From a virus: a stretch of 64,000 bases of DNA. The notes beneath the pieces were generated by a model that was not told where the DNA came from, made no database searches, and was given only the letters and a program-made list of their open reading frames with translations. Below are positions 20,746 through 64,000 of this stretch, piece by piece (position 1 is the first letter of the stretch; every line of letters starts with the position of its first letter). The stretch spans positions 3,615 through 67,614 of IMG/VR virus record IMGVR_UViG_3300020042_008783; one strand, given 5' to 3'. Position numbers and translations under genes: made by a program.

Positions 20746-20746
20746 A

Positions 20747-20774
20747 AAAGTATCAACCGGATGGAACGTGTCAA
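20747..20774 (-). promoter_or_regulatory. sigma70-like promoter for MCP
   Basis: TTGACA-16-TACTTT. Confidence 0.55.
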
Positions 20775-20788
20775 TAGCTTTAACAAAT

Positions 20789-21994: not shown

Positions 21995-22009
21995 ATTTTA
22001 TTTTCCTTA

Positions 22010-24567: not shown

Positions 24568-24615
24568 AAGTCCGACTAGTATGGGGGAAGCCAATATTCC
24601 TGTCAATCATCCTTT

Positions 24616-26349: not shown

Positions 26350-26355
26350 AATTAC

Positions 26356-26383
26356 TTGACAGTTGTCAATTTGAGTTCACTCT
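26356..26383 (+). promoter_or_regulatory. divergent junction: palindrome TTGACAGTTGTCAA and promoter for the replication genes
   Basis: TTGACA-16-CACTCT; back-to-back TTGACA hexamers. Confidence 0.5.
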
Positions 26384-26412
26384 AGCCGGCACGATGAACA
26401 TACCCCTAAAAA

Positions 26413-26814
26413 ATGAACAGTTGTACAAAAGGCAAAGTCGGAGAGCGTGAGTGGCGCGACGTCCTCAAGGCGAAGGGCTTCGAAGCGCGCCGTGGTCGGC
26501 AGTTTTCCGGGAGTCCGGAATCACCCGACGTTGTCAGCAACCTCCCATTTCACTTTGAAGTCAAGCGGGTTGAGGCCCTCAACATTAACAAAGCTATGGA
26601 ACAGGCCAAACGAGACAGTGGCAAGAGTGTGCCAGTGGTGGCCCATAGAAAAAACAAGTGCGCGTGGCTTGTTACGATGGTTGCGGAAGATTGGCTTGAA
26701 CTAGTTCGTGAAAAGCATTCAGACGCTTGTTCAACTGCACCCGTGGCAGGAGAAATCAAAAAGTATTATACTTCAGGCAATTCGGAACCACTCGATCGCG
26801 CTGGATTGCTCTGA
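26413..26814 (+). CDS. Holliday junction resolvase (archaeal Hjc-like PD-(D/E)XK)
   Basis: KGK.GERE....L...GF.ARRG.QF.G...PD....EVKR. Confidence 0.85.
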   Translation: MNSCTKGKVGEREWRDVLKAKGFEARRGRQFSGSPESPDVVSNLPFHFEVKRVEALNINKAMEQAKRDSGKSVPVVAHRKNKCAWLVTMVAEDWLELVREKHSDACSTAPVAGEIKKYYTSGNSEPLDRAGLL

Positions 26815-28012
26815 TACTGGTACTGGAAAAACTGTCACGGCTTGCGCTGTGGCAAAAGAACTTGGTTTTGAATTTGCCATCATCGCCCCCAAGATTGTAC
26901 TTCCAGCATGGAAAAATTGGTGTAGCACTTTTGGGCTACAGCCTAAATTCGTTTTAAACTATGAAAAACTTCGAACTGGGAATACCGAATTTATAAAAAA
27001 GCTCGGGAACAAACAATGGGATTGGAGGCATAAAGGCAAAACCTTCCTCTATATCTTCGACGAGGTTCATCGCTGTAAGAGTTACAAATCACAAAATGGG
27101 GCGATGCTAGAAGCCGCGGCTGGGTCGAACGTTCTCATGCTGTCTGCTACTGCCGCGGGGAGTCCTATGGATATGCGTTTTACTGGTCGACTTCTCGGAC
27201 TCCACAATGGGGTCGACTATTTCAAATGGCTTCACAAAAACGGTGTGGTAAAAGCTCCGTGGGGTGGGATGACATTTCGCGGTGGGAGGCGTGTGCTTAC
27301 CGATATCCACTCAAAGATATTCCCAGCTAAAGGGGTTCGGGTGCGCATCAGTGAGTTAGGGGACGCTTTCCCAAGTAACCAGGTTAACGCGGAGGTGTTG
27401 GATATTTCGCCCAAGATCGGTGAGCTTTACCAGAAGGTTGAGGAGGAAATTCTGGAGCTAAAAGATCGGTCTCGTACTGATGTAGACCCAGAGAACCCGT
27501 TGACTAAGCGATTGCGGATGAGGCAAGAAATTGAATTACTGCGGGTGCCAGTCATTACAGAGATGGCGGAAGAGTTTATCGAGGAAGATAAAAACGTTGT
27601 TTGTTTCATAAACTTTAGACAGACGCTCGATGCTATTGGGGAGAGAATGAAAAAACATAAGCCAGTTTATATTCTTGGCGATCAAACTACCGAAGAGAGG
27701 GAGTCGGCAATTGCTTCTTTTCAGGCAAATAAATCCCACTTGATTATTTGTCAGATTGCGGCCGGTGGGGTGGGAGTAAGTCTTCACGACCTACATGGAA
27801 GGCCGAGAGTTTCGCTCATCAGTCCTACATATTCTGCTGTTGATCTCAAGCAGGCTCTCGGTCGTATTCACCGCACGGGAGCTAAAACTCCCGCGCTACA
27901 ATACATCCTATTCGCTGCTAACTCGGTTGAAGAGGAAGTAAGTAAATCAGTCAAAACAAAACTTCGAAATATTGATTTGTTGAACGACGGTGATTTAATC
28001 ACGCATAATTAG
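26708..28012 (+). CDS. superfamily 2 (SNF2/DEAH-like) helicase
   Basis: SDTGTGKT, DEVH, SAT, QALGRIHR. Confidence 0.9.
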   Translation: MKSIQTLVQLHPWQEKSKSIILQAIRNHSIALDCSDTGTGKTVTACAVAKELGFEFAIIAPKIVLPAWKNWCSTFGLQPKFVLNYEKLRTGNTEFIKKLGNKQWDWRHKGKTFLYIFDEVHRCKSYKSQNGAMLEAAAGSNVLMLSATAAGSPMDMRFTGRLLGLHNGVDYFKWLHKNGVVKAPWGGMTFRGGRRVLTDIHSKIFPAKGVRVRISELGDAFPSNQVNAEVLDISPKIGELYQKVEEEILELKDRSRTDVDPENPLTKRLRMRQEIELLRVPVITEMAEEFIEEDKNVVCFINFRQTLDAIGERMKKHKPVYILGDQTTEERESAIASFQANKSHLIICQIAAGGVGVSLHDLHGRPRVSLISPTYSAVDLKQALGRIHRTGAKTPALQYILFAANSVEEEVSKSVKTKLRNIDLLNDGDLITHN

Positions 28013-28056
28013 CGCTTGACGATTACGTTTTTAGAGTCACAATCCATGGCACGCTG

Positions 28057-28293
28057 ATGGATACGCAACACGCAAGATACAGCCCGAGCACTCTAAAGAG
28101 TCGGGAATTATGTCCGGGATATGAACCTAAACGGGACGGGGAGGTTCACATAGTGACACAACGTGGAACCGCTATGCATCACGCTTGTGAAATGAGCGAC
28201 TTTGAAGATTTGAATGCCGACGAAACCAAACTCGTAATGAAATGTTTAGATTACATTGAACGCTTGCGAGCGGAGTTAGCTACCGATGCTTGA
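28057..28293 (+). CDS. N-terminal half of a Cas4-like/DUF2800 exonuclease
   Basis: HA..SPS......CP ... RGT.MH. Confidence 0.7.
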   Translation: MDTQHARYSPSTLKSRELCPGYEPKRDGEVHIVTQRGTAMHHACEMSDFEDLNADETKLVMKCLDYIERLRAELATDA

Positions 28294-29158
28294 CCTCAAA
28301 GAAATTAAGCTGGAGGTTTTTGATCAATGGGGTTTTGTTGATCGATTGATGATTCGTGGGGATAAGGCCCATCTTATTGATTACAAATTTGGATTTAACC
28401 CCGTTGACGATGCGGAACATAACGCTCAAATGTGGGCATATACTCTCGGTGTTTTTGATAAACACGATTATATCAAAGAAGTTACTGTACACATTTTACA
28501 ACCTCGTCTAGATCTTATCTTCACTCACACATTTACCCGTGAGGGGGACTACGAGAGAATACACAAACGAATAAAAGGAATCATAAACAAATGCAAAAAT
28601 CATACAGAAGCCGATTATACGCCTGGGGATCAATGCGTTTACTGCCACAAGCTAGCAGACTGCCCAGCAGTCCACGGAGCCACAATGCAGATCGTTAAAG
28701 CTTATGACATGGCGCATGACGCTCAGTTGCCAGAACTATTTCAGCCAAGCCAGTTATCTACTCCGGAGCGTCGGGCTCAAGCCCAGCGCATTGCGATGGT
28801 CATGGAGGCTTGGTGTTCGAGCGTTCGTAAACACAATTTAGAGTTTGCCAAAGAGGGTGGTGAAATTCCGGGCTATGGATTAAAAGAAATCCAGGGCCGC
28901 AGGGAAATCAAGGACTCTGAAAAGGCTTGGGATTTGGTGAAAAATAAACTTACTCCGGAGGAGTTCAGCTCCGCCTGCGAGATTAAGTTCACAGATTTGG
29001 CCGATCTAGTTGCGGCCAAGGCGCCTCGCGGTCAGAAGACCGTGGCGAAAGAACAACTGGAAGATGACCTCATCGCTGCTGAAGCAATGACGCGTGGTGA
29101 GCCATCTTATCAACTAAGAAAAAATAAAGAAATAAAAGAGATAAAACAAATAAAATGA
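28286..29158 (+). CDS. C-terminal half of a Cas4-like/DUF2800 PD-(D/E)XK exonuclease
   Basis: E....G..D.....IDYKFG, Q...Y, PG..C.YC.....CP. Confidence 0.8.
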   Translation: MLDLKEIKLEVFDQWGFVDRLMIRGDKAHLIDYKFGFNPVDDAEHNAQMWAYTLGVFDKHDYIKEVTVHILQPRLDLIFTHTFTREGDYERIHKRIKGIINKCKNHTEADYTPGDQCVYCHKLADCPAVHGATMQIVKAYDMAHDAQLPELFQPSQLSTPERRAQAQRIAMVMEAWCSSVRKHNLEFAKEGGEIPGYGLKEIQGRREIKDSEKAWDLVKNKLTPEEFSSACEIKFTDLADLVAAKAPRGQKTVAKEQLEDDLIAAEAMTRGEPSYQLRKNKEIKEIKQIK

Positions 29159-29871
29159 AAACATCATTCAGTAAGAAAGATAAGGAAGCCGTGGAGGCAA
29201 CCGAAGATAAAGCATTGGTTGTGGCTGGGAGCAGGTCTCCTTCCATCACCAACCGCAACGCTGGGGTGGATGGAGAGTTTAAAGCTTCCGACTTCCTCAT
29301 CCCGAGGATCAACCTTGTCGGCAAGACAGGTAACCTCAGTAATAACTTCCAACCAGGTTCCTTTGTGTTCAACAAAGAAATGGTTGTTGGTAGCAAGGAC
29401 TCCGCAATGGAGGCCATCATCACTCACATCCAAAAGAAATACATTCAGGAAATCCCTTACGGGACGGATGTCATTCCGAAGATTTTTGCCTCGCAAGCCG
29501 AGGTGGAAGCTGCGGGCGGAACTTTGGATATCTCAGAGTCCGAGGATGTGGATCGGTATATTCCGTTCCTTGTCTTGACCCTTTTGGTTGCAGAGCCAAA
29601 AGATAAGAATCCAATCTTCTCGCTTGAAGGTCCGGATAAGAAAAACTACGCGCTGGCGCAGTACAATCTCACTAAGAGTGCGTATCGCGGAGCGGGTCGT
29701 CAGTTGTTGACCGACAGTCAAACCGTCCTTCGTGGCGGGTTGACCAAGGGTCGGTATCAAGTGAGCAGCAAGCTAAACACCAATACGATGGGCAGTTGGT
29801 TTACGCCCACGTTCAAGTTGGCTGGGACAAACGATGACGAATTCCAGGCTTGGGCTTCTAGCTTGATCTAA
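29155..29871 (+). CDS. putative ssDNA-binding protein
   Basis: D..IPR..L.......PG.F; sits between the exonuclease and PolA. Confidence 0.55.
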   Translation: MKTSFSKKDKEAVEATEDKALVVAGSRSPSITNRNAGVDGEFKASDFLIPRINLVGKTGNLSNNFQPGSFVFNKEMVVGSKDSAMEAIITHIQKKYIQEIPYGTDVIPKIFASQAEVEAAGGTLDISESEDVDRYIPFLVLTLLVAEPKDKNPIFSLEGPDKKNYALAQYNLTKSAYRGAGRQLLTDSQTVLRGGLTKGRYQVSSKLNTNTMGSWFTPTFKLAGTNDDEFQAWASSLI

Positions 29872-29883
29872 GTAGATGAAAAA

Positions 29884-29966
29884 GGGGAGACGTTCCGGCA
29901 TGGTGCGACGCGAGAGGCGTCGACAGGTTAGGTGTGTCCTGCCGCGTGAAACACCGGACGTCCTCC
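29884..29966 (+). ncRNA. candidate structured element (multi-stem) after the SSB-like gene
   Basis: Outer GACGT(T)CCGG/CCGGACGTC stem enclosing CGACGC/GCGTCG and CAGG/CCTG hairpins. Confidence 0.4.
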
Positions 29967-30036
29967 GCCAAATGGTTAAGTTTTTTTCTGAACTGCTCGA
30001 ATTAAAATTTCAAAATGTAACGCAAGTAAAGGGTAT

Positions 30037-30339
30037 ATGGATCAAAACAAAATAGTTCCGCCTTCAATTCATGAGGTGGCTTCGGAAGCCTTCACTACTG
30101 TCACTAAAATTATGGAAAAAGGTTCTGATAAGAGTTCATTTGGCGAGTGGTTTTATAAGGACTCTCGTCGGTATAATTCCGATAGAGCAATTAGCCATAT
30201 TTGTAGGGCTATGATGCAGATCGATGGTAATGGGCAAGACCCGGATTTAGGGGGAGAAACATCTATCGATCACCTAGAGCGAGCCCTAGTAAGGGCGGCC
30301 TTTCTATTGTTTAAATGTAAAAGGGGGAAAATAGAATGA
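30037..30339 (+). CDS. divergent dATP/dGTP diphosphohydrolase-like (DUF5664-like) protein
   Basis: G..K....W ... A..H ... D...GE...DHL..A..R..FLL. Confidence 0.5.
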   Translation: MDQNKIVPPSIHEVASEAFTTVTKIMEKGSDKSSFGEWFYKDSRRYNSDRAISHICRAMMQIDGNGQDPDLGGETSIDHLERALVRAAFLLFKCKRGKIE

Positions 30340-30518
30340 TCGATTCATTTTTGTTATGGGTATTTGTTTGGATTAGTAAGCGTTGGTTTAACTCCGTTGT
30401 TTTTGGAACTGATCCAGAAACAGATAGAGCCTCATCTATTTCATTCTTTGAAAATGAGGAGCATGCTCAACAATATTTAGAGTTAATTCAAAAAGGAAAA
30501 GAGGCGAAACAAAAATGA
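30336..30518 (+). CDS. hypothetical protein
   Basis: ATGA coupling with the upstream ORF. Confidence 0.5.
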   Translation: MIDSFLLWVFVWISKRWFNSVVFGTDPETDRASSISFFENEEHAQQYLELIQKGKEAKQK

Positions 30519-30706
30519 TATTTCATTGGGTTTGGAAGAAAACCGGGTTTCCTTATTTGGAATCCCCTAAAACAGAAACAAAAAGCACGACCATGCCAAA
30601 AAAGAAAGGTAAGGTGTCAAGTGGAAAATCTAAACGCCCTAGAAAAAGATAGACTTGCTCAAGAGATTGTTGCAGAATTGGATTACCTCTTAAAGGAAGG
30701 ATTTTT

Positions 30707-31072
30707 ATGTCTAAAGAACACCAAGGAACCTCGCATTGTTTTAAACCCGAAGGTGAGCATATGAGCATAGACGCACTTATCGATGCGGATGCAATGCGTA
30801 AACAACCGGAATACATGCAAAGAGAGCTCCACAGAGTTCATCAGTTTTACAAGCGAGTAACAGATCTGGCAGAAACAAACCATAAAACCGCCTCTACTCT
30901 TGTGGAAGAGAATGGGCGGTTAGAGAATGAGAACGATGGGCTAAAGGAGTTCTGCCAGGAACTCCTTGCGTCTATGGCAGACCTTGAGCAGGAATGTTCG
31001 CAATTCCGCCACAAGGTTAGGTCAGCCGTCCTCGAATTACTACCACATCAGAAAGAACAAAAAAATGATTGA
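30707..31072 (+). CDS. coiled-coil hypothetical protein
   Basis: In operon; start may be 30761. Confidence 0.55.
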   Translation: MSKEHQGTSHCFKPEGEHMSIDALIDADAMRKQPEYMQRELHRVHQFYKRVTDLAETNHKTASTLVEENGRLENENDGLKEFCQELLASMADLEQECSQFRHKVRSAVLELLPHQKEQKND

Positions 31073-31409
31073 ATTAGCAATACAAATTAAAAATGAAATT
31101 GGTACTGACAAGATTAGCGTGGAAATGCTTCCCCGTGATGGCGAGGCAAATATCATAGAGAAGGACGTGCTGAACGGACTTTTTCCACACGTTGTTGATC
31201 TTTTAAACGGACTTCTCGGGGGAGAGGGATTCCGCAAAATGGAGAAACTGGCTCAAGAAGTTCCTCCGCTAGAATCTCGTATCGTTGATAAAAACGGAGC
31301 TCCTACGTCTATCCCTATGGATGAGGAATATCTTTTGAAAAAAGGTTTGATCGAGCCAGAGGGCGGCGTTCAACCTATTGAAAAGAGCTCGGTAAATATC
31401 ATAAGCTAA
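31065..31409 (+). CDS. hypothetical protein
   Basis: Likely start MIELAI. Confidence 0.55.
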   Translation: MIELAIQIKNEIGTDKISVEMLPRDGEANIIEKDVLNGLFPHVVDLLNGLLGGEGFRKMEKLAQEVPPLESRIVDKNGAPTSIPMDEEYLLKKGLIEPEGGVQPIEKSSVNIIS

Positions 31410-31705
31410 TGTCTCATGCCAGTGAAAAACTGGCCGATCAATTCACCGTGATCCCTTACCCATTTGTGGGTGAGCATCGCGATGCAATCGAGGCTGAATA
31501 TGCGCTGCTACTTAATGGTGGGATAAAGCCAACCGAGGTGGCCGATCTTATTCTTCACGCCTTGGAGATATTATTAAACAAAAGAAAAAAAGCCGAAGGA
31601 ACGAACACTTATGATGAAACTACAGCTCAGGTGTCTGATATGCTTGGGCGCCTTGTGGTTTTTGAAGAAATGTTCTCAAATAAAAAATACAAAAAATCAA
31701 AATGA
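31409..31705 (+). CDS. hypothetical protein
   Basis: Coupled to neighbours on both sides. Confidence 0.55.
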   Translation: MSHASEKLADQFTVIPYPFVGEHRDAIEAEYALLLNGGIKPTEVADLILHALEILLNKRKKAEGTNTYDETTAQVSDMLGRLVVFEEMFSNKKYKKSK

Positions 31706-33492
31706 ATACATATGCAATTGACTTTGAAACATATTACGACAAAGAGACATCAATCACTACACTTGGGCAGTGGCACTATTTGCGTAGCCCTGCCTCAGAC
31801 ATCTACATGGTTGCCATTCAGGGGCCAGATATTGACTACGTAGGATGCCCTAAAAAAGCTCCATGGGCCAAGATTGGCGGCCACAAGTGGGTAGCTCACA
31901 ACTATAGTTTCGACGGCGCAGTAATCGAGAGGTTGCGGGAGCAGGGATGTGTTCAATCCAAGCCTGTAGCTTGGGACTGCACCGCAAACCTTTCGGTTGC
32001 CGTGGGGGCTCCACGTAATTTGTTGGGTGCTTCCAGGGAACTTCTTGGTAGGACTATCGACAAGGACCCTCGGGATAAGATGCAGTCCAAGAAATGGAGC
32101 GATGTCGAGGGTACTGAATTTGGAAGAGAAGTATTAGAGTACGCTCGCCAGGACGCCAAAGCATGTCTTGGTATTTATGAGAAGTTCTCCAGTGATATGC
32201 TTCCAGCGGAGTCCGAGCTATCGAAACACACTATTGAGATGGGGTGGCGCGGGATCCAGGTCGACCAAGATGCTGTTTCCGCGGGCATCAAAGCCCTTCA
32301 AAAAGTTACTTGGGAGAGTGAGAATTCATTACCATGGATCGAAGAAACAGACGGAGTGGTTCTCTCGACGAAGGCATTCCGCAGGGAATGTGCAAAGGCT
32401 GGTATTCCATGGCCTACATCTTTGGCGGAAAACTCCGAGGAGTGCGCGTTGTGGGAATCTCAGTACGGTGGGCAGGTTCCTTTTGTTGGGATCATGCGTG
32501 ACTGGCGTAAGGCAAACTCTTTGTTGGCCAAGCTGAAGGTCATGCAGGGTCGTATCAAACCAGACGGAACTATGAGTTACGGATTGAAATACATGGGGGC
32601 TCACACTGGTCGTTGGTCTGGTGATTCGAAGTTCAACGTCCAGAATCTTCCGAGGAATGAAATGTTCGGAGTGGATTTGAGAGGTTGTATTGTCCCGCGG
32701 CCTGGAAAGAAGTTTGTTATCTGTGACTTGGCTCAGATCGAACCGCGGGTACTTGCTTGGCTGTCTGGTAACGAAGGGCTCCTTCAGGCGATCAGAAATG
32801 GTTATGGCATCTACGAGGCAGCGGCTAAGAACATGGGGCTATGGGACGGTGAGAAAGCAACCCTCAAGAAGGTTGACGCACCCCTGTATCAGTTGGTGAA
32901 GGCAATGGTGCTCGGCCTCGGCTACGGTGCCGGGGCGAAGAAGTTCGCTCTTATTGCCAAGATGCAATATGGAATCGACATGACGGAAACTAAGTCGACC
33001 ATGATCGTCAATGATTTCCGGACTAGGAATCAACCGATCTTGGACTTGTGGCGAAAGCTGGAGGGTGACTTCCAACGGGCGAAAGCGGACAAGCAGTTTG
33101 AGGTCGGCTTGCCAAGTGGTCGAGTTCTTACCTACCGGAATATTATGTCCCAATGGCCAGACAAGCAGAAGTATGACAAAAGTGGTAAAGCCAGGAAATC
33201 GGCTTGGACGGCTAGAGTCGAAAGAGGAGGGCCGCAGATTCCATTCTACGGAGGGAAGCTGTGCGAGAATCTGGTCCAGGCTGTAGCGCGTGACGTTATG
33301 GGCGCGGCGGTATTGCGTTTGGAAAAAGCTGGTTGCCCTGTCGTTATGCATATTCACGACGAGGCCGTTTGCGAAGTTGACAATTCAGTTCCGGCTGGTG
33401 AGATTGAACGTCTCATGAGCGTCTGTCCTGAATGGTTGGATGGGTGTCCAATAGGTGCGGAAGCGACCGACGCAGTGAGGTACAAGAAATGA
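31702..33492 (+). CDS. polA: family A DNA polymerase with 3'-5' exonuclease
   Basis: ExoI AIDFET, HTGRWSG, NVQNLPR, motif A DLAQIEPR, motif B K...LGLGYG, motif C HDE. Confidence 0.95.
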   Translation: MNTYAIDFETYYDKETSITTLGQWHYLRSPASDIYMVAIQGPDIDYVGCPKKAPWAKIGGHKWVAHNYSFDGAVIERLREQGCVQSKPVAWDCTANLSVAVGAPRNLLGASRELLGRTIDKDPRDKMQSKKWSDVEGTEFGREVLEYARQDAKACLGIYEKFSSDMLPAESELSKHTIEMGWRGIQVDQDAVSAGIKALQKVTWESENSLPWIEETDGVVLSTKAFRRECAKAGIPWPTSLAENSEECALWESQYGGQVPFVGIMRDWRKANSLLAKLKVMQGRIKPDGTMSYGLKYMGAHTGRWSGDSKFNVQNLPRNEMFGVDLRGCIVPRPGKKFVICDLAQIEPRVLAWLSGNEGLLQAIRNGYGIYEAAAKNMGLWDGEKATLKKVDAPLYQLVKAMVLGLGYGAGAKKFALIAKMQYGIDMTETKSTMIVNDFRTRNQPILDLWRKLEGDFQRAKADKQFEVGLPSGRVLTYRNIMSQWPDKQKYDKSGKARKSAWTARVERGGPQIPFYGGKLCENLVQAVARDVMGAAVLRLEKAGCPVVMHIHDEAVCEVDNSVPAGEIERLMSVCPEWLDGCPIGAEATDAVRYKK

Positions 33493-42350: not shown

Positions 42351-42427
42351 CATAGGGGGGTGGGGGAGGGGGTGCGTATAGGGGTTGTCCCGCAAACCAG
42401 ACCCCGATAGGGGGAGGGGGAGGGGGG
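42351..42427 (+). promoter_or_regulatory. G-run tract with extended -10 (GGTGCGTATA); candidate genome end/early promoter
   Basis: GGGGGGTGGGGGAGGGGG and GGGGGAGGGGGAGGGGGG; motif repeated at 43557-43588. Confidence 0.45.
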
Positions 42428-42449
42428 AAACATAAAGGAAACAAATCAA

Positions 42450-42885: not shown

Positions 42886-42921
42886 GGAGGGGGGAGAGAA
42901 ATCTCCCCCCTCCCCTTTTTA
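42886..42921 (+). terminator. rho-independent terminator
   Basis: 12-bp stem, GAAA loop, T-tract. Confidence 0.85.
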
Positions 42922-44358: not shown

Positions 44359-45459
44359 CCAAAAGGAGACACAAGACAATGAGTATGAAAGATAGAAAGC
44401 AGATGATGAAGCGAGTTGAAGATTGGATGGGCTCGGATGCCACTTATTCAGATCTGATTGAGATCATCGCTCAAGTTGCATTGGGAGAATATTCAGCAAA
44501 GCAATTAAAAGAAGATGTTCTCTCATTCGAGTTGGAAGAACAATAACCAAATGAGCGTGATACTACCAATCGATGCTTACATCCAACTCAACGGAGTCGA
44601 GTACTATGGCAAGGTTGTAAAAGACGGAACACGAAACCACCACCCCATGTCCGAGTATGTCGGCAAGCGTGTGTTTGATGTATCCAAAATTCAGTCAGAC
44701 GAGTCATGGACTCATTGGTATGTCTTCGAATCCGAGATGCCATTGCCCAACTTCTATGACTCTACGTTCATTCACTCGCTGGACTATGCGAGCTGGATAG
44801 ATGTGGACAGGGATGACTGCGACGCACCTGGACAGATGTTCAGACGCAGAGCTTACATCTCAAAGATGGGTCAGTGGAAGATGATCATCACCCAAAGCGG
44901 AGGGCGTGACATATGAGAGGTAGATCTATCGACCCCAAGTATGTCATGACCAATGCAGTCCAAGCTCACTATGGGCGAAGGCTGACTAGGAAAGACTGGG
45001 AAAGGAACGTCAAGATAGCCAGACGCACGAGCCGAACGACCCTCGCAATCAAGCGTAAAGAAGGCTTGGAGTATCAGTATGCGTTGACCGATATTCATCG
45101 GAGCATCATCAAGAAAGTTATGATGACACCCGATGAAGCTTACAACCGAAACAAGGTAACCAAGAAGCTTGGGCTTGCTTGGGTTATGTGCGGATGAGTA
45201 CCGAGACAATCAATCTATGGTACTGGCTGTTCGCACAGACCCCATCACCAAAGCTTCATCACGGTAATAACTAAGGAGGAATATGAAAACCAAACTATAT
45301 AAGAAAATGCTGGAAATCTACTACAAGAAGGGAGCGAGCGGAGTATATCACTATGCCAATCGCCATCCCAAGCAGTTTGAGCCAACTGATAAGTGGTGCG
45401 TTCAATGTGAAGCACTGACTCCCCGCATCATTCGAAGAGAAGGTTGCGCCGTTTGCGGA

Positions 45460-45519
45460 TAGACACAGTGCCCCCCAAACACGGGGGCACAAGTCTAGCC
45501 GATAGGCTGGAAACGAAAG
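45460..45519 (+). repeat. intergenic two-hairpin element, copy 1
   Basis: TAGACAC-hairpin-AGTCTAGCCGATAGGCTGGAA..ACGAAA. Confidence 0.75.
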
Positions 45520-48500
45520 TAACACTAACCAAGAAAGAATCAGTAAATATGAAACTGAATAACGAAGGTAAGATAGTAATCGAAGTCAAACACGGCGTGT
45601 CATCAGACGGAAGTCTGAACGGCCGTTATTACATGGCCAGCATTGAAGGCTGGACTGGTGAGGGCTTGACCGAAGCGGATGCGGTGCGCGATGTGCATCA
45701 GTCCCGTGCGGAAGCCTTGACCAAGCTTCACCACAACAACCGCGCGTTTGGTACTCGGTTAACCTTTGAGGTTGCCCAATGATTTGGGGCGACTTCTTTG
45801 AGGTGATGACTATCATCATCCAGTTATTGATGGCGTTCATGGTCATTCCAGCATGTCTTGTGTGTAGCGCGATTCTCATCGTGCGTCTTCTCAAGATAGT
45901 AGAAAAGGAGATCAATTGAAAGCTGGCGACAAAATCTGGGTAGATGCCCAGATGATCGAGATCCTAAAAGGTCATAACTTGGGGCGGAAGTTTCGCCTCA
46001 ACACTGGTGTGGCTGAGGTGGCTGGTGACATCTACCCCGACGACACCATTGTGCCCAATGAACTGAACGTAAAGATTGGTGATGCTCGATGGACAAAGCT
46101 TGCCTTGGGTGAGCTTGAACGTCCGTGGCGTTACCCAACCTTTCGCCGTTTGCTTGCGGTTATCCGCTCGTGGACTGGTGACTGGTTGTTCCGTGCCCGC
46201 AAGCTCGAGCAGGGAATCAGTATTGAAGAAACAATTAACAATGAGGAGAACGACAATGATCAAAGTTAAGCTTGGTTGGGGGTGGATGCGTTTCCACTTC
46301 TTCGCGAACAAATTCAACAATGCCATCGTGGCTAGCGTGGAGTTTCGGCCTCTCGGCTTTGAACTCTACCGCGGTAGTCATTCGGTAATGATCTACTTGG
46401 AGCTTGTCATCGGCACGCTGATGATCAAGTTGAGCAAATGAAAGCTGACAAATACTTAGATACTTGTACAGAAGCAGAGTGTGAGTTTGTATACGAGAGA
46501 TTTTATGGCCAATCGACGCATGAATTGGTTGAAGATCTCCTAAGTTACATTGACCACGAACCTATCAAACAATTAGTCGAAAACTATAGAAAGGAAACAA
46601 AATGAGTTACCCAATCGAAGTAGTAGCCGAGAAGGGAACGCTCCAGCGCAGGCTTGGGCTGACTCCTATCGACCGAACCACAACCGCAGACTTCCCGAAA
46701 GGGAAGATAACTATTAGAACAAACAGAGTTCCAACCTTATCAGAGGGCGGAGCTTATGCGTTCTACTACACCGACCACGAAGGTGATCGGTCAGTGTGTC
46801 ACGTTGGGCCCGTGTACCGATACACAAGTCATGGGAGAACTGCCAGTGATGAGATGTATTATCACTTCAATTCTGGTTGCTTGAGGAAAACTCAACTCGA
46901 TGCGTTTGTCACAACCATCAAGGCCATCGAAGCCAAAGTCGATGCCCTTATGAGAAAGGAATCCAATGGCTACCAAGACGAAATCTAGTAAGAAGAATCT
47001 AACCAAAGACCAGCTTAATAGACTTAAGGTGCTGGACTTCATCGACATCTACGCTGACGACGAGCACAAGGAAAACATCATCCTACTCGATGGCTTGGAC
47101 AAAGCTTTCCTCGGGCTTTCCCATCGAGATGGACAACACGGAACACAAGTGGCGGTGTATGGAATCTATTCCTGCATTCACACACTTCAACTCGACAACA
47201 AGTGGAGTTGGGATGAAGCTGAAGAATACTTCTACTTCAATACCCGCTGGGCTTATGTTGGCGAGTATACCCCGATGTTCATCGAGGAGATGATGCGATG
47301 AATGCCAAACTGACACCTCAAGAGATTAGGCAGGGCGACACCGTTTGGTGGCGCGGAAGCTTTGGCAACGAGGGATGGCAAGAGGCGAAAGTCAAACGCA
47401 TCGAACTCGTTCGTCCAGGTGAGAAAGAAAATGGACTCCTTGTGCCTTGGGTGCCCACAACCATCATCGAGAACTGTGTTTTCGATCTGGACAATGGGCA
47501 TTGGGCATATGGATATCAAATCAAACCAGTGGAGGAAGCTGTATGAACATCCAAGACTTAAAAAAGTTGGGACCTAAATCCCCAATTCGCATTAAGTTAA
47601 CCGATGAGCAATGGAATGAAGTGTGGCATAAGTTTGCAACCGCTGAAAAAGAAAGGAGAGAAAAACATGAAAATCGAAGACTACGATAAGTTTGAGAGCA
47701 AAACTGATCGTCCGATAATCTCAAAAGCTGAGATGAGCAAAGCGTGGTATCAGTATCAGATAACAACTATAGACCTCCAGCTTATGGAGCAAGCCCAGTT
47801 GAAGAAAGAAGGCTTGATTGTCCTCCTGCGAGAACACACGCTGAAGAACGGAAGAGTGACCCGCAAGGTTGTGGACACTGGTTCCCTCGAGATTGACGGT
47901 GTTGACGGCAGAGACGCTCCAGACTTCTCCGACGCCTACTTCAGTGCTGGTCAGTTTAAAGACGGCACCGAGATGAGCGACGAGGAACTCAACGAGCTGG
48001 CTGATGAACATCCCGATCTTCTGCACGAAATGATTTACCACCACGCGTCGGACTAGTCATGAGATTCTTCTACCACTTCAACAAACCTTTGACGCAACGA
48101 CGCAAAGATATCTGGTGGACAATCCACTACCAGAATCAGTGCGTCCCCATCAAAGGCTTTGATTGTCGTGTGGCTACACACGATCGAAAACGCAAGAAGC
48201 AACCACTCGCAGTTGTATGGGGCGATGCCAGTAGCATCGTCATTCAAGACAACCGCGCAATCATTACATAAGGAGTAACCAATGAAAAAGAAAAAAGCAA
48301 AGGTAACAGAGAAAGTTATGACGATCGACAGGAAAGACGGAAACCTCAACGGAGTTCCATATATTCAGTTCCTTGTAGCGATGCAAGGGCTGGAAGCTTT
48401 GAATCGTGGAATGATGTTGACTCGAGTCGCAACCCCAAGTCGGTGTATGGAGATCATATCGCAGATCACTGGTCAGCGATACAAACGAACCGATAGGAAC

Positions 48501-48904
48501 AAAGCGTTGTATGATGCGGAAGTAATCATGCATGCGCTTCGTGAAGAGAAGAAACAACTAGCTCAGGACGCGGCACTCGCATGAGAATCGAAGTCGAGAA
48601 GGATGATGTTAAGTTCGAATACGACGGCAAGAAGTATTCGGTAACTGGCACAGCCATCCACAATACCGAGAAGGAAGACATCGGTATTGGTTCTTATGAG
48701 TTCTGGGGTTCGCGTGGTTATGACAGCCAGATTGTCAACCAAAGCGAGTTCTCGGAATGTGAGTTCGATAGCTTGGCAATCTATCCAGACGAAGGAATGG
48801 AAGAAGTTCCAGAACCTTCTAAAGAGCTTGTCGAGGCCGCACAGGAAGCTTTGTATCAAGCGACCTACGAAACCGCGGAAGAACGGGCTGTCGAGTTAAG
48901 CGAC

Positions 48905-48970
48905 TAGACACTCTGCCCCGTCGCCAACGGCGGGGTAGCAGTCTGGCCGATAGGCTGGAATCAAACGAAA
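48905..48970 (+). repeat. intergenic two-hairpin element, copy 2
   Basis: TAGACAC-hairpin-AGTCTGGCCGATAGGCTGGAA..ACGAAA. Confidence 0.75.
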
Positions 48971-49492
48971 ACCAAACTGAAAGGACACATATATGGAACT
49001 AACAATACCATCGGAAGTGGTAGATGAGTTCGGTCGGGCGACCGAGACGCTCAAACTATCAAATGAGAAGCGCAAAGAATATCGGACTCTATTCCTAGAA
49101 TCCGCGAAGCAAGGAGTCAAAAGCTGGATAGGCCAGCACTTCACGGTTCAGATGGATGAGCACGATAAGGCAAGACTTGCCAAACCTTTGCTCAAATCCA
49201 ACCTGCTCAAATACTTGACCGCAGATCAAGTTAACCACGTGCTCGAAGCTTCGACAGTAGAGTCGGAGGAATGGCACTTCACCGCTCGGAGGATTCCGAC
49301 AGGTGAGTAAGGCTGTAAAGATTGCAGACGAGATAACAAAGTGGGATTGCTACGCTTTGTTTGACAAAGACAATGTATTACTCAACGACCAGTTATTCAC
49401 ACACTACGAACGGGCGCAGAAAATTGCTTCCTGTTACGAGAATGGTGAAGCCATCATCTGGAAAGTTGAACTGAACAGAAAGGAAAAAGTCA

Positions 49493-52714: not shown

Positions 52715-52743
52715 GGGGCGGGTGGGCAAATCCCATCCGCCCC
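52715..52743 (+). terminator. GC-rich hairpin after rIIB (terminator or processing site)
   Basis: ggggcgggtggg-caaat-cccatccgcccc; no U-tract. Confidence 0.5.
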
Positions 52744-53928: not shown

Positions 53929-54060
53929 AACGTTAACCTTAAGTTTACTTTTGGTTATTGTAATGATGGATGGGATTCCCGACAAGTACTGGCCCGTGTG
54001 GGCTAGGGTAGGGAACGACAACATCATATCCAGAATTAAAATATTTGGTGAAAGGCATGT

Positions 54061-59185: not shown

Positions 59186-62100
59186 TTACTGTCTTTCTGG
59201 AAACAAGATACCCTCTTGATTTTTCTCTAGAAGAACTTGATATAGAATTGCCTTTTTGATTGGGTTAACAATTGACCTCGTCACTTCTCTGAACTGTCCT
59301 GGGCTCATCGCTTCCAACTGGGGGATAAGCTCAGCAAGTTGTTCTTGAATAACCGGCCCAGCCCTCATCATCCATTCGTACTTCTCATCTGTGGATAACT
59401 CTCGTTTGAGGTTATAGAAATCGTCCTGTGTTAGTTGTTCGCCTTTGGCTTGAGCGTCTTGAATCATCTCTGCCATAGCAAAATCTTTAAGGGGACCAGC
59501 ATCCCAGTCCAATGAGGAACGTTTAGACGCGAACATGGAAATTAGCTTGTCGTGAGTTGCCTGTGGGGTTCTCTCCCCGTTGTCATAAGCTTGAGAGTCA
59601 ACGCCCGTAGTTGTGAGTCGGCGTAAGAAAGGAACAGTATTCGCTACTTGTGTTTTTGTGTTACCGCCGAGGAAGTCAAGGTCTGGCCTTCCAACCTTTG
59701 AAGCGAAAGGAATGGACTGGGCGAATGTGGATAGAAGATTTTCTTGATAAGGTCGAGCAGAGGGGGAGCCGGCTATGCCATTGAATAGTTGCTCTACGTC
59801 ACGGAGCGTTGCGTATCCAGGTATTAAACCACCCGCGACATTGCCAACCGTCTTACTGAGGTTAGTCATGATTCCTTTTGCATCACGTTGACCGACGCCT
59901 GGGGAAGTGAGGGACATAAGCTGACGTATGCCCGATAGAGCTGCCATGTCTAGAATTCCGTACATCGCTAAGGCGCTGCCCGTCAGTCCGCCCAATACAA
60001 TGGACTCTGCTACGGATCGTTTCTCGTATCGGATAGATTCTGTAATAGCTCCCGCGAGAAGTAGAGGGCCAGACAATCCGACAGGGAAACCTTCAAAGCT
60101 GAAGAACTGTGGCTTTCCGTCGCTGAATCTTCCAATTTGGATAGCCCGAAGTTTTCCACCCGCGGCGAAGAAAGCTTCACGTTGAGCTGGGTCGGCTGGT
60201 CCCTTGAAATGAATGTTAAAATACGGGTCATCCTCACCACCAATAGCGTCCTTTAAGGCGGCTAACAGAGTTCCTGTTATGATATATCCAAGTGTCATTT
60301 TACCCAGCAGGAGGTCATGCTCGACTGTTCCGGGGACGGCCGGTGGGCGATAGTACTTAGTGTCCTTCAGCATAGCCGCGGAGCCACGATACAATCTGAT
60401 GGTGGACATTAGCGGAAGAAAATTTAAAACTTCATTCGCTAAGCTCGATCCCGTTTTCAAGAACTTAACAAACAATCTCAACGGCCACGCTTTGGCAGAG
60501 ATGCTCGTCAAACCATCAGCTAATAATCCAAACCATCCCTCAAAGTTATTTGTGAATGTGGATTGTGCTGCAAAAGTTTTAGCTTTCTCCGTTAAATTTT
60601 TAACAATCTCTTCGTCCGGCCTGCCTTGCTCAAGAATCTCTTCAACCCGCAACGACTCTTGTTCGGGAGTTAGATTGAATTCCTTAGCTTCCGAAGCCGC
60701 TTTAGCTTCTGCGCGCTTTCTGGCTTCCGGACTTTGATTGAGGAGTCGAGCAACTTCGGCTTCAATTTCATCGTTTGTCTGGAGACCCTGCGCGATTGCA
60801 ATGTTAGTAGCCTCGGCAATTTCATACATTTTGCGGGAAGAAATTTTATTGATTGCGTCGCCAGCCGCCATGGATCGACCGAAGAATATAAAGGGGGCGA
60901 GGGCACCATATTTACTGCTTAAGAATTTAGAGTCCAGTGGGATTCGATACTCTTGTCCGAATACATTAACCGGCAACTCAGGCTGAACAGCTCCCGGTTT
61001 GCCCGCCCGGTAATCTTCTCCTTGTTTTACAATCGCTTCCCAGATGTTGACCCCGCCCAATTCCTGGGTCAGAGCATCTTGAATATTTGAATAATCCCCG
61101 TTAAAAAATACGTTAGCTGCGGCGTTCAGTGCGGGTTTCTCTCCGGCAAAGATGGCGGAGTTAAGTGCGATCGCTGCGTCCTTATAAGCTTTGGCCCTTG
61201 CTTTGTCTCCGACTATCCCTTTAGCCGCTCCAACTCCGGCGAGAATCCCGGCGTTGAGCTGATTGCTCATCGTCGAAGACCAAGCATTGATACCGATCGT
61301 TCCAATTCCTGCCAGCAAGTTGGAGGTTTGATAGTTAACGAGCAACTCTCCCCACACTTGGGGCGAGACCAGCTTTACATACTGATACATTTCAGAAATC
61401 TTTTTGTTTCGAATCATTCCGACCGGATAGAGGGGCAGGTCTTCAATTAACTTATTGAGCTTCTTGCGTTCTTCCTCTCTCAACTCAGGCAACCCAAGTT
61501 GTGAGTGCATCTGCGCGAATACTTCGCTATCGGTTAAAACTCCAAGGTTGGTGGCCTCGATCAATCTATCCAGGGCCGAACGCATCTTCCTAGTCTTACG
61601 TTCTTTCTTCGCCTCAAACCCTTTCTTAATCCTCTCGAGTTCCTTCTTACGCTCGCTGGCAATAAGGTCGGTCAATCCTTCTCGGAGGAAGTCGGTCACT
61701 TCTTTCTTCTGTGCCTCATCGAGTGTTGTATTCTGGGTCAGCAATGCGCCCATCTTATTTTCGAAATCCATGATATCGCCCTTGCTCGAACGGATGAGAC
61801 CGCGAATATTCGTTTGAGGTCCACCGATTGATTCGAGGGAGCGAACTGCCTGCTTCAAGCTCGACACAGTAAAGGGTCGGCCAAATGCTTCGTCGATGAA
61901 GGGCTCGAGTCCGGCGAGTTCTTCTTCACTATAAACTTCTTTTAAGGAGTCGCGTACATTGTCGATAAACTCCATGACGTCCGGATACTTCTCAATTCTA
62001 TCACGAAGAACTTCGGCTTCAGATGGCTTTGGCTCTGGCTTATAAGTGGGCTGAAGCCCGCCCTGTTCCTTTGTTCTCTGCGCGATTAGCCTACGAATGC

Positions 62101-64000
62101 GGGCAGCAAACTCTTCCAACTGATCCTTCTTCTTGGGCTCTTCCTGAAGGCGAGCCGCCTGTTTCTGCAAAGCTTCCGCTGACGCTTCGGCTAAAGCTTC
62201 AAGTCTCGAAGTGGCTTCGGTGGGGATTGCAACGGGAGCTTGGTCTTTGGCTTTAGCCTTAGCCTCAAGGACTCGACGAATGGCTTCCCCGCGGGTTGTG
62301 GGGGGTTGAATGCTCTCTCGAGCGCGGGCTTCACCAAGAGCTTGAGCTGAAAAAATTTCAAGAGCGTTAGTCAAAGCGGCATCAAAATAAAGATCAAGTT
62401 TGCGTCGAACATTCTCTTGGTTCTTTGCATCCCGCAAGGCTGGGGTGAGCATCAGCAGGCTTTTGATTTGGTCTTCGGAAGCTGCCGTTATGCTAGGGTT
62501 CTCAGAGCGTTGAATGATCTCGAGGATCATTCGGCTCAGCGCGGTGGTTTGTTCTGGGTTAAGACGAATGCCATCAGCATCACTTCCCTCAACCTCAGGG
62601 GCGGCGGCTAGATCTGCCCCAAGGAATTCCGCTCCATCTGCCAGCGCTTGCTCGCTTCCAACGTATTCTGCTACTGCCGCTTCGAGTTCGGCAACAGTTG
62701 CTTGCTTCTTATTAAGCTCTACAAGTTTTGCAATCTTTTCAATTGTCGACTTTGTCTTCTTATCTGTCGTTAGTTTGTCGACAGCTCTACGAGTGGAGTC
62801 AACAAGACCAGAGGATATCTCGCTTTCTTCTTCCGCAAAGCCTGTCAACCTTCCTCGAATCGATGAATCAATTTGTCTGCTGATGTACATCTTCATGGCT
62901 TCTGGATTGTTGGAGAGTTCTCCTAACGCATTCCAGAGATCAACGGTACGTCCGGGTTCAGTACCGTATTTCCTACTTAACAAGAGCATTACTTCTGCCA
63001 ACTGTTCTCTGGCATATAAATCTGTCTTAGCTTTTGCACCAAGAGCATTGGCCAGCTCAAATCCGATAGCTCCCTGTAATGGCAAAGAGCTCTTGATGTT
63101 ACCACTCAAGAAGGCATTAAGAGAGTTCTGAACACCGTTTGTTGCAATATAAGATTTGGCATCATCGAATTGCTGTTCGCGTGGAATGGACTGATAGTAC
63201 CAGGCATCTAGAAGCCTGTCCTTTATCTTGCCTTCAGGAAGAACATCGACGAACTGCGTGACGATATTCTTTACGGCTCGGCTCTCACGAATCTCGGAAG
63301 CTGGCGATATACGGACAACCTCGGGCGACGGTACTGGAATCGAAATCGGTTCTCCATTTAATGTGACCGAAACGACAATTGGTTTTGCGGTTGCAACTTC
63401 TGGTGCTGGTGAAATAACCTTAGCAAACTTTGCGTAGCCAGTATCCCGAAGAGCTGCAATTAGAGGGCCCGGGCTAGTATAACGTTGGCCGTTATAGTTG
63501 ACTACTTCTTGACGTTCGAACAATCGGATTGCCGCATTGGATACGGCCTTCGCTTCGGAGGAAGCCGTAGTTGGAATAGCTATATTACCGGGAATCTTAA
63601 CGCGATACTGTTGATAAGTCGGTTGAGTATCAAAACTTTGTTCGTTACTTGTCACTTCGGCGGGAGCAGAAGTCGCTACAAAAGCGGCGACGGGCAATGA
63701 CCTACCGGCGTCTTCCATACCCTCCGCCAACTCCAGAGCCTTGTTAGCTATAGCTGGGAAACTTGCTCGACCCCCATCCATCACTGCTTGTGTTGCAGAG
63801 CGGAAAAGATTTCTCTCATCGGCCGTAATAATTCCGCGACGTCGGCTAATATCTAGAGCGTCAAGCCACTCTTCCACTCCAACGGTCTTAAATAAATCGT
63901 CGGCAACCGATACCCCGAGCACGCCTTCAGTTCTTCCCTCAAGATGATTCTCAATCATGCGGTAGATTCGAAGATCGTATGAGTCGAATACGGTCGCGGC
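59186..64000 (-). CDS. C-terminal part (>=1604 aa) of a giant internal virion protein, open to the window edge
   Basis: Frame stays open from 63958 to 64000 (AATVFDSYDLRIYR-MIENH); helical LPD-like C-terminus. Confidence 0.8.
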   Translation of the reverse strand, partial: AATVFDSYDLRIYRMIENHLEGRTEGVLGVSVADDLFKTVGVEEWLDALDISRRRGIITADERNLFRSATQAVMDGGRASFPAIANKALELAEGMEDAGRSLPVAAFVATSAPAEVTSNEQSFDTQPTYQQYRVKIPGNIAIPTTASSEAKAVSNAAIRLFERQEVVNYNGQRYTSPGPLIAALRDTGYAKFAKVISPAPEVATAKPIVVSVTLNGEPISIPVPSPEVVRISPASEIRESRAVKNIVTQFVDVLPEGKIKDRLLDAWYYQSIPREQQFDDAKSYIATNGVQNSLNAFLSGNIKSSLPLQGAIGFELANALGAKAKTDLYAREQLAEVMLLLSRKYGTEPGRTVDLWNALGELSNNPEAMKMYISRQIDSSIRGRLTGFAEEESEISSGLVDSTRRAVDKLTTDKKTKSTIEKIAKLVELNKKQATVAELEAAVAEYVGSEQALADGAEFLGADLAAAPEVEGSDADGIRLNPEQTTALSRMILEIIQRSENPSITAASEDQIKSLLMLTPALRDAKNQENVRRKLDLYFDAALTNALEIFSAQALGEARARESIQPPTTRGEAIRRVLEAKAKAKDQAPVAIPTEATSRLEALAEASAEALQKQAARLQEEPKKKDQLEEFAARIRRLIAQRTKEQGGLQPTYKPEPKPSEAEVLRDRIEKYPDVMEFIDNVRDSLKEVYSEEELAGLEPFIDEAFGRPFTVSSLKQAVRSLESIGGPQTNIRGLIRSSKGDIMDFENKMGALLTQNTTLDEAQKKEVTDFLREGLTDLIASERKKELERIKKGFEAKKERKTRKMRSALDRLIEATNLGVLTDSEVFAQMHSQLGLPELREEERKKLNKLIEDLPLYPVGMIRNKKISEMYQYVKLVSPQVWGELLVNYQTSNLLAGIGTIGINAWSSTMSNQLNAGILAGVGAAKGIVGDKARAKAYKDAAIALNSAIFAGEKPALNAAANVFFNGDYSNIQDALTQELGGVNIWEAIVKQGEDYRAGKPGAVQPELPVNVFGQEYRIPLDSKFLSSKYGALAPFIFFGRSMAAGDAINKISSRKMYEIAEATNIAIAQGLQTNDEIEAEVARLLNQSPEARKRAEAKAASEAKEFNLTPEQESLRVEEILEQGRPDEEIVKNLTEKAKTFAAQSTFTNNFEGWFGLLADGLTSISAKAWPLRLFVKFLKTGSSLANEVLNFLPLMSTIRLYRGSAAMLKDTKYYRPPAVPGTVEHDLLLGKMTLGYIITGTLLAALKDAIGGEDDPYFNIHFKGPADPAQREAFFAAGGKLRAIQIGRFSDGKPQFFSFEGFPVGLSGPLLLAGAITESIRYEKRSVAESIVLGGLTGSALAMYGILDMAALSGIRQLMSLTSPGVGQRDAKGIMTNLSKTVGNVAGGLIPGYATLRDVEQLFNGIAGSPSARPYQENLLSTFAQSIPFASKVGRPDLDFLGGNTKTQVANTVPFLRRLTTTGVDSQAYDNGERTPQATHDKLISMFASKRSSLDWDAGPLKDFAMAEMIQDAQAKGEQLTQDDFYNLKRELSTDEKYEWMMRAGPVIQEQLAELIPQLEAMSPGQFREVTRSIVNPIKKAILYQVLLEKNQEGILFPERQ

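Follow-up and report, generated by a model that had tools for sequence, protein, structure and literature searches.

The element and its locus

The IMG/VR record IMGVR_UViG_3300020042_008783 is a phage sequence of 67,614 bp from freshwater metagenomes; it has a 121-bp terminal repeat and is classed as complete. We analyzed 64 kb of this record (positions 3,615 to 67,614, referred to below as the window; coordinates are those of the window unless stated otherwise). By gene content the window belongs to a tailed phage. Its - strand encodes the large terminase, structural proteins, and a BspA-type leucine-rich repeat protein, and its + strand encodes a helicase, a DUF2800 nuclease, a family A DNA polymerase, a primase-helicase, many small open reading frames (ORFs), rIIA, and rIIB. 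The small genes form a string in which most neighbors overlap. Two of the few true gaps within this string are occupied by copies of a structured element, which is the subject of this report.

From 5' to 3', the element consists of the stop codon of the upstream gene, a long hairpin (P1), a short hairpin (P2), the sequence YGGAA, and an A-rich leader with a Shine-Dalgarno (SD) sequence that ends at the ATG of the downstream gene. The initial annotation of this DNA had described a layout of TAGACAC, a hairpin, and AGTCTRGCCGATAGGCTGGAA, beginning at the TAG stop codon, and this layout is read in both copies; AGTCTRGCCGATAGGCTGGAA is followed by ACGAAA directly in copy 1 and via TCAA in copy 2. 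The pairings that it had proposed, TAGAC with GTCTR and GCC-GATA-GGC, are likewise present in both copies, and the inner stems differ as described (GTGCCCCC/GGGGGCAC versus CTGCCCCGTCG/CGGCGGGGTAG), each being able to pair. The conserved unit exceeds that description: it also includes a 5' flank containing GCG and the entire leader up to the next ATG. The features of the two copies are as follows (nt, nucleotides; aa, amino acids).

45449-45514, + strand: copy 1 of the element, covariance-model match of 65.7 bits
45460-45462, + strand: TAG stop codon of the upstream 59-aa ORF (45283-45462), overlapping the first bases of P1
45460-45497, + strand: hairpin P1 of copy 1, based on fold and covariation
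45460-45464 with 45493-45497, + strand: outer helix of P1, TAGAC with GTCTA
45468-45475 with 45483-45490, + strand: inner helix of P1, GTGCCCCC with GGGGGCAC; loop at 45476-45482
45498-45512, + strand: hairpin P2, GCC-GATA-GGC (45498-45507), then T and the invariant GGAA (45509-45512)
45513-45551, + strand: A-rich leader of 36 nt with the SD-like GAAAGAA, and the ATG (45549) of the downstream 77-aa ORF
48894-48962, + strand: copy 2 of the element, covariance-model match of 68.5 bits
48905-48907, + strand: TAG stop codon of the upstream 108-aa ORF (48581-48907), overlapping the first bases of P1
48905-48945, + strand: hairpin P1 of copy 2, based on fold and covariation
48905-48909 with 48941-48945, + strand: outer helix of P1, TAGAC with GTCTG
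48913-48923 with 48928-48938, + strand: inner helix of P1, CTGCCCCGTCG with CGGCGGGGTAG, including two G·U pairs; loop CCAA
48946-48960, + strand: hairpin P2, GCC-GATA-GGC (48946-48955), then T and the invariant GGAA (48957-48960)
48961-48995, + strand: A-rich leader of 32 nt with the SD sequence AAAGGA, and the ATG (48993) of a 105-aa ORF that precedes rIIA and rIIB

The two copies are not explained by chance. Even with three mismatches allowed, the window contains the 21-mer AGTCTRGCCGATAGGCTGGAA only at these two sites; it appeared in 0 of 100 shuffles, and its 15-mer core occurs exactly twice in the whole 67.6-kb record. A covariance-model scan of the window returned just the two copies, and the next best match scored 13.2 bits. 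The predicted + strand folds have energies of -28.8 kcal/mol for copy 1 (z -5.0 versus shuffles) and -31.6 kcal/mol for copy 2 (z -3.3 versus shuffles). The - strand of copy 2 behaves like its shuffles (z -0.05) because the stem contains G·U pairs.

The phage is distant from those in culture. A megablast search with 6 kb of the window found no match among deposited phage genomes, a tblastn search with the terminase found none among deposited phages, and rIIA is at most 29% identical to proteins of cultured phages. Pfam and PHROGs returned nothing informative for the proteins flanking the element. The initial annotation had placed the element in an early operon; this is plausible only by analogy, given the small ORFs and the downstream rIIA and rIIB.

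Homologues and covariation

Pattern scans of phage and metagenome sequences, together with a covariance model of the kind that the initial annotation had suggested, revealed homologues and covariation in two groups of phages. About 50 distinct homologues were present among the matches listed, all of them in contigs of uncultured freshwater phages. The homologue scans were anchored on sequence patterns and under-sample divergent members. A scan of IMG/VR for the exact 15-mer gave at least 117 loci; among the matches listed, 37 have the full context and the rest are chance occurrences. When the IMG/VR scan was anchored on the 5' flank and P1 base only, and was therefore unbiased for the 3' block, 32 loci were found. 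The block reads CCG-ATA-GGCTGGA in 24 of these, CCG-TGT-GGCTGGA in seven, and CCG-TTA-GGCTGGA in one, and GGAA comes next in 32/32. A degenerate pattern found 41 loci. A metagenome scan gave at least 122 loci; the matches listed include 109 distinct sequences, which the presence of the A-rich leader separates into 42 members and 67 chance hits. Eighteen loci with an A:U or U:A first pair in P2 were all chance occurrences; the best of these candidates (L220) lies within a long ORF on the opposite strand.

Outside these contigs, the 20-mer had three single chance hits in the 185,579 species genomes of GTDB, none with the hairpin and none in an array. A search of 50,697 phage records gave nothing meaningful; blastn matches to the cassette were chance matches of 25-34 nt, and the one inspected lay within coding sequence. 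A literature text search for the literal sequence of the element found no match.

The carriers fall into groups A and B. Group A comprises 67-71-kb relatives of the window phage, whose proteins neighboring the element are 41-100% identical. These phages carry two copies per genome, one about 4.3 kb and the other about 0.55 kb upstream of rIIA. A single gene string contains both, separated by about 3-4 kb in the relatives and by 3.4 kb in the window. Group B comprises phages of 37-38 kb with one copy each, and the proteins adjacent to its copies have no detectable similarity to those of group A. Several other genes are common to both groups at 23-72% identity, and the G+C content is 46-48% in both; groups A and B probably share a host and a gene pool.

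P1 has 13-16 bp plus an internal loop. The 5 bp at its base, YAGAC/GUCUR, are fixed in sequence; the top varies but pairs, and the copies include at least six unrelated inner stems. GNRA loops (GCAA, GAAA) are frequent in group B. P2 directly abuts P1 and has 3 bp, SCC-GNNN-GGS. Covariation was assessed over 46 distinct copies, using the outer 5 bp and inner 8-11 bp of P1 and the 3 bp of P2. In these, 97.4% of the cells are paired, versus 86.4% in shuffles, and the covariation score is 0.333 versus 0.128, a score reached by 0/500 shuffles. Changes on both sides were found at nine of the ten pairs of inner P1. Slid controls gave 22-49% pairing, and RNAalifold independently recovered the P1/P2 fold.

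Across 52 sequences, the outermost pair of P1 (Y12:R57) is CG in 39, UG in ten, and UA in three, and is never broken; the rest of the base is invariant. Pair 58:67 of P2 is GC in 48 and CG in four, which amounts to one compensatory swap. The P2 loop reads GAUA, GUGU, GUUA, GAUC, or GCUA, so that only its first G is kept. The covariance model also found a diverged form, GUCUG-CCC-GUGU-GGG-CGGAA, which carries this swap, at site 2 of some relatives. The chance hits among the listed metagenome matches provide an internal control: positions 58 and 67 are complementary in 42/42 members versus 40/67 chance hits, and Y12 pairs with R57 in 42/42 members versus 25/67 chance hits. Read on the opposite strand, the conserved G·U pairs would turn into A·C mismatches.

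P2 can be extended to 7 bp (UCUR with YGGA), and this extended helix competes with the P1 base. It is intact in 52/52 sequences and shows in them no covariation of its own beyond this compatibility. The predicted folds with the P1 base and with the extended P2 differ by a mean of -0.28 kcal/mol (range -1.3 to +2.7) over the same sequences. A long rod, in which the 5' flank pairs with the 3' block, is the predicted minimum-energy fold; it was rejected, since most of its pairs are unpaired in most sequences.

Additional hairpins resembling P2 were considered and discarded as further members. Stems closed by GATA are not enriched in the genome (13 versus 8.6 in shuffles), and the UCC-GAUA-GGA found in the leader of one group B phage (L067) recurs in just two of 35 upstream contexts. 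An intergenic + strand hairpin at 53987-54004, GGCCC-GTGT-GGGCT, is similar to the GUGU variant of P2 and was not found in relatives by a regular-expression search. As a side observation, the intergenic leader before the gene at 42450 (42355-42430, + strand) consists of long G runs, GGGGGGTGGGGGAGGGGG ... GGGGGAGGGGGAGGGGGG, and includes an AGAC ahead of a P2-like CCCC-GATA-GGGG hairpin, with AT-rich promoter-like hexamers just upstream. In another phage (L034, IMG/VR, 43 kb), the 15-mer GCCGATAGGCTGGAA occurs twice within about 3001-3470, 455 nt apart and in an unrelated context. One occurrence is an arm of a perfect palindrome with 13-nt arms, and an identical AT-rich sequence follows both; this repeat looks like an operator or promoter.

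Gene context and candidate functions

In 56/56 contexts the element has the orientation of the flanking ORFs. This includes group B, in which 37 of the 42 long ORFs are on the - strand and the element lies in a small + strand island. In 40 of 51 distinct contexts the upstream stop codon precedes P1 by 4-6 nt (5 nt in 30); in seven it lies inside P1, and in four it is 9-16 nt ahead of it. It is TAG in 41/51 contexts, versus 22 of 142 long ORFs in three genomes. The leader from GGAA to the ATG measures 30-36 nt in 42 of 44 distinct leaders, and the other two have an extra upstream ATG. Its composition is 62% A, 19% C, 13% G, and 6% U, and 81-87% of it is predicted to be unpaired, both with and without the 5' flank kept open. 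Given the fixed position of the stop and the near-constant leader, the conserved unit is the whole gap from stop to start.

The genes on either side of this gap are exchanged. Upstream and downstream neighbors belong to at least 14 and at least 13 protein clusters, respectively, in many combinations, and one protein family is found upstream of the element in some phages and downstream in others. Relatives of the region were present in four metatranscriptome runs as assembled contigs. Contigs from these RNA libraries include a related strain that lacks the cassette at site 2: the divergence begins exactly at the stop codon, and the sequence after the stop runs directly into the ribosome-binding site of another gene. 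The element is thus situated at a junction at which genes are combined. The initial annotation missed this role and the conservation up to the downstream start codon.

Other observations concern the surroundings of the two copies. The upstream 59-aa ORF of copy 1 (45283-45462, + strand), located between a 94-aa gene and the element, encodes a zinc-finger-like protein (CxxC...CxxC). It is absent from most relatives, for example L077 and L078, and its final codons and stop come from the 5' flank of the element. Between the copies (46300-48060), relatives in RNA-library contigs replace 47017-47038 and 47559-47864 and carry an insertion at 48055-48058; this region is therefore hyperplastic at a distance from the element as well. 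The small-gene block is preceded by a strong canonical intrinsic terminator (42886-42913, + strand; 12-bp G+C stem and T run), and a 12-bp G+C hairpin without a T run lies downstream of rIIB (52715-52743, + strand). A free-standing PD-(D/E)XK endonuclease-like gene (PF11645; 13418-13810, - strand) is located amid the structural genes; group B phages have homologues about 1.4 kb from their copy of the element (4405-4791 in L067). The PD-(D/E)XK genes may be homing endonucleases that add to mosaicism. A single ORF of 3858 aa extends from 59186-64000 (- strand) over the record ends into 1-3281 (- strand). It has an SNF2/Strawberry-notch (Sbno)-like helicase core (phrog_62, ResIII) and no other family match, and its product could be a giant virion-borne or anti-defence protein.

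The initial annotation regarded the element as a functional RNA. Covariation, conservation in two phage groups, G·U pairs, and co-orientation in 56/56 contexts bear this out, and we consider it very probable that the element is a cis-acting RNA structure of the sense strand. Action as sense RNA is indicated by the combination of a free loop with compensatory stems and G·U pairs, by co-orientation, by the embedded stop, and by the attached SD leader. The element rather likely acts locally on the expression of the flanking cistrons; a local role is favored over a processive one because two copies lie 3.4 kb apart in one gene string and because the distances to stop and start are fixed.

We tentatively propose a portable intercistronic cassette of sense mRNA that is transcribed by the host RNA polymerase, insulates the downstream gene, and serves as a junction; without a nuclease step, this proposal has somewhat less than even odds as a whole. 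The data establish the structure of the element, its strand, position, and conservation, and its junction role; the mechanism set out next is inferred. Transcription by the host polymerase would fit the result that Pfam and PHROGs detected no RNA polymerase in either phage group, and the sigma70-like promoter of L067 described below. P1 and P2 would lock all G+C-rich sequence in self-contained hairpins and would so uncouple the downstream gene from whatever sequence precedes it. Ribosomes and exonucleases arriving from the upstream cistron would be blocked by the hairpins, and too little naked RNA would be available for Rho, while the leader would offer a standard, open translation-initiation region to the downstream gene. 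The P1 base, P2, and GGAA would most likely be the recognition site of a conserved host factor. Our preferred candidate for this factor is an endoribonuclease that would cut between or beside the two hairpins, so that each product would be protected by a hairpin, the upstream mRNA at its 3' end and the downstream mRNA at its 5' end; endonucleolytic processing as the core step is doubtful. The cassette would double as homology for the exchange of neighboring genes, because its approximately 100 nt are near-identical in co-occurring phages.

Several points weigh against this proposal. The 20-nt 3' block and the GCG of the 5' flank are more strictly conserved than a mere stabilizer or insulator needs. 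By the rules for Escherichia coli, inner stems as G+C-rich as those of group A are poor substrates for RNase III. The carriers represent few phage lineages, and many of the covariation cells are therefore inherited rather than independent. RNA contigs that start at 45506, 45517, and 48981 are explained by strain variation; these positions vary between strains (P2 loop, G/A at 45515), and we read the starts as assembly-graph breaks. Lastly, two mutually exclusive helices that are predicted to be nearly iso-energetic hint at a switch, which a simple insulator would leave unused.

This last point leads to the possibility that the element is an operator for a trans-acting factor, a phage or host protein that binds the P1 base, P2, and GGAA, or else a ribosome-actuated switch that couples the two cistrons. 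We regard this as unlikely. In the switch version, a ribosome terminating at the embedded stop would melt the P1 base, and GUCUR would re-pair with YGGA. A ribosome terminating 4-6 nt before P1, the spacing in 40/51 contexts, would by the geometry of its footprint open just the conserved 5-bp base, so the fixed stop would place exactly that helix under its control. Both competing helices are intact in all 52 distinct copies, holding the 5' flank and YAGAC open lowers the predicted accessibility of GGAA from 0.53 to 0.30, and the constant 30-36 nt to the ATG set P2 and GGAA at the 5' edge of the 30S footprint. However, the predicted accessibility of the SD sequence is nearly equal in the two states (0.81 versus 0.87), and the extended P2 does not covary on its own. 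Moreover, the stop is inside P1 or 9-16 nt away in the remaining contexts, the flanking genes differ, and no candidate binding protein is common beside the element. A ribosome-actuated bistable switch of a new kind, which would gate factor binding or cleavage by the RNA itself or by a host nuclease, is improbable; if it were true, the expression of each swapped-in accessory gene would keep pace with the translation of the preceding gene. About as improbable is antitermination or anti-pausing of the put type known from phage HK022, in which a nascent RNA with two hairpins would bind the host RNA polymerase and render it resistant to downstream terminators. The put RNA makes RNA polymerase terminator-resistant through the zinc-binding domain of the beta' subunit. 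In its description, put has about 70 nt and two stem-loops and occurs as putL and putR (PMC9378689). The size of the element (about 65 nt), its two adjacent stem-loops, and the compensatory changes between copies match that description (PMC9378689), as do the two copies per genome of group A; group B has one. In L067, a sigma70-like promoter (TTGACC-17-TAGTAT) precedes the element by about 240 nt, and the element, after the first small gene, is about 240-300 nt downstream of it; putR is about 270 nt from the start of PR. A conserved host target such as RNA polymerase would be in keeping with nucleotides that are invariant across groups with unrelated neighbors. Against this, other upstream contexts differ from that of L067, and the window copies have no promoter-like site immediately before them. 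The 3 bp of P2 contrast with the two long stems described for put; in group A, the gene string that contains both copies is uninterrupted and has no predicted + strand terminator between the two; and the fixed distances to the stop and the next start would be unnecessary for an RNA bound to polymerase. The HK022 record has no put annotation. The element model was run over the HK022 immunity region (positions 20000-32000): with filters off, the best score was 9.7 bits (E 0.12), which is no similarity. The element, for which the initial annotation had named a put-like antiterminator as one candidate, is thus not a homologue of HK022 put in sequence or structure.

Three further explanations are less probable again. 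The cassette might be a promoter in which P1 is a terminator-like hairpin and the 20-bp block, as a duplex or extruded as in phage N4, is read by a phage-encoded or modified polymerase; we judge this quite improbable. Such an arrangement has a precedent in the promoter-early stem-loop cassettes (PeSL/PmSL) of T4-like phages, reportedly described by Arbiol in 2010 and by Comeau in 2014. The order of stem-loop, conserved block, SD leader, and ATG is the PeSL architecture (PMC4122927), and the leader of constant length is like a 5' untranslated region. We also take GCCGATAG to resemble the sigma28 -10 consensus. By reading, however, there are no sigma70 -35/-10 hexamers in or after the block; a promoter scan found no site at either window copy, and the leaders have no TAnnnT at a fixed place. 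The GTGT and GATC variants lack the sole -10-like hexamer, TAGGCT, and the variants GCCGTGTG, GCCGTTAG, and GCCGATCG alter the would-be -10 core. Within the block, all changes either fall in the loop or compensate each other, a pattern that marks a folded strand and not a duplex recognition site. Pfam and PHROGs detected no RNA polymerase or sigma factor in either phage group, and none is common to both. A duplex promoter is unlikely in view of the changes tolerated by the hairpin, the missing sigma70 hexamers, and the lack of a shared polymerase. A hairpin promoter of the N4 type was rejected, as the hairpin on the template strand would have A·C mismatches and the 3858-aa ORF has no signal of the N4 virion polymerase. 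Look-alikes of sigma54, sigma28, and extracytoplasmic function (ECF) sigma sites, compared by eye with their known motifs, each fail in at least one of copy 2, group B, and the loop variants, and the same is true of a bypass of the T4 gene 60 type (GGA-UAG ... GGA), a hammerhead core, and a preQ1-like tail. It is very unlikely that the element is a new small self-cleaving ribozyme that parts the two cistrons, as the initial annotation had considered. The compact fold, the invariant nucleotides where the two helices join, and the position between cistrons would suit one, and several known small ribozymes are phage-borne, as the element is. But no pseudoknot or multi-helix junction is backed by covariation, and the hammerhead core is absent by reading. 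Rfam 15 gave nothing at the gathering threshold over the whole window, and at E up to 10 only noise for both copies and one group B copy (best mir-358, with 19.1 bits where the gathering threshold is 65); the element matches none of the known ribozyme families there. Least probable of all is an element that acts as DNA, with no RNA function: a recombination or homing site, a mimic of a repeat of clustered regularly interspaced short palindromic repeats (CRISPR) as in RNA anti-CRISPRs, or an attC-like site. The combinatorial gene junction and the free-standing PD-(D/E)XK and HNH endonuclease-like genes of these phages would agree with this; P2 and the tail loosely recall what we take to be the type I-F repeat hairpin, and an imperfect palindrome with conserved outer boxes and a variable center right after a stop recalls attC. 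The core sites of attC are R''/R' RYYYAAC and GTTRRRY. By reading, the AAC/GTT core triplets are absent from the element, whose outer boxes are YAGAC and GUCUR, and Pfam scans of groups A and B found no tyrosine recombinase or integrase. The three single hits of the 20-mer in species genomes, with no array and no hairpin, speak against a CRISPR-repeat mimic, with the reservation that the host may be unsampled among those genomes. Furthermore, the structure has G·U pairs and is specific to one strand, the element always has the orientation of transcription, and the conserved unit takes in the SD leader.

Significance and comparison with known systems

The element is a new RNA motif that is supported by covariation, is absent from Rfam, and occurs in uncultured freshwater phages that are abundant. 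Its position is the exact seam where small accessory genes are exchanged, and these genes likely serve host takeover or anti-defence. The seam therefore provides a handle for finding accessory genes and for learning how mosaic phages keep acquired genes expressed. If the cassette is a natural context-independent insulator, it would be of interest to designers of synthetic operons; if it instead binds RNA polymerase or senses terminating ribosomes, a rare regulatory principle would gain a second example or a new type.

Among known concepts, the PeSL of T4-like phages comes closest, with the promoter replaced here by a folded, invariant RNA block. PeSL are cassettes of a stem-loop, a promoter, and an SD sequence at shuffling junctions (PMC4122927). 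Both elements combine an intergenic stem-loop with a conserved block, an SD sequence, and a start codon, are conserved between phages, and are found at indel or replacement junctions of small accessory ORFs, where they plausibly mediate modular shuffling (PMC4122927). In contrast, the PeSL block is a sigma70 (or Mot-box) promoter, whereas the block of the element has no -35/-10 hexamers, folds as P2, and covaries. The element is also present in one or two copies per genome, whereas PeSL are many, and its stem-loop has a base of invariant sequence and an embedded stop codon.

Compared with HK022 put, the element is similar in its length (about 65-70 nt), adjacent stem-loops, two copies, compensatory differences, sense-strand location in an early-type operon, and lack of an obvious phage protein partner. 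It differs in that its second stem has 3 (up to 7) bp, in its tight spacing to stop and start, and in that the copies of group A share one gene string without an evident nearby promoter or downstream terminator.

Cleavage at the RNase III sites of phage T7 leaves a 3' hairpin on the upstream mRNA. As in T7-type sites, an intercistronic hairpin with an internal loop stands right after the stop and is repeated in the phage with shared sequence; unlike them, the element has a shorter helix (14-17 bp with the internal loop counted in), very G+C-rich inner stems, and an invariant second hairpin and GGAA tail. An RNase III-type site, one of the candidates of the initial annotation, would have about two turns of double-stranded RNA with an internal loop, where P1 has its 13-16 bp and internal loop. 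The lambda nutR site follows the first small gene of its operon and has a short hairpin with a purine-rich loop. The element has no boxA-like sequence, and the loop of P2 is variable rather than recognized. Bacterial repetitive extragenic palindromes (REPs) follow stop codons and stabilize the upstream mRNA. In contrast to REPs, which occur in hundreds of host copies, the 20-mer of the element is absent, apart from the three chance hits, from the 185,579 species genomes, and the element is borne by phages at one or two sites per genome.

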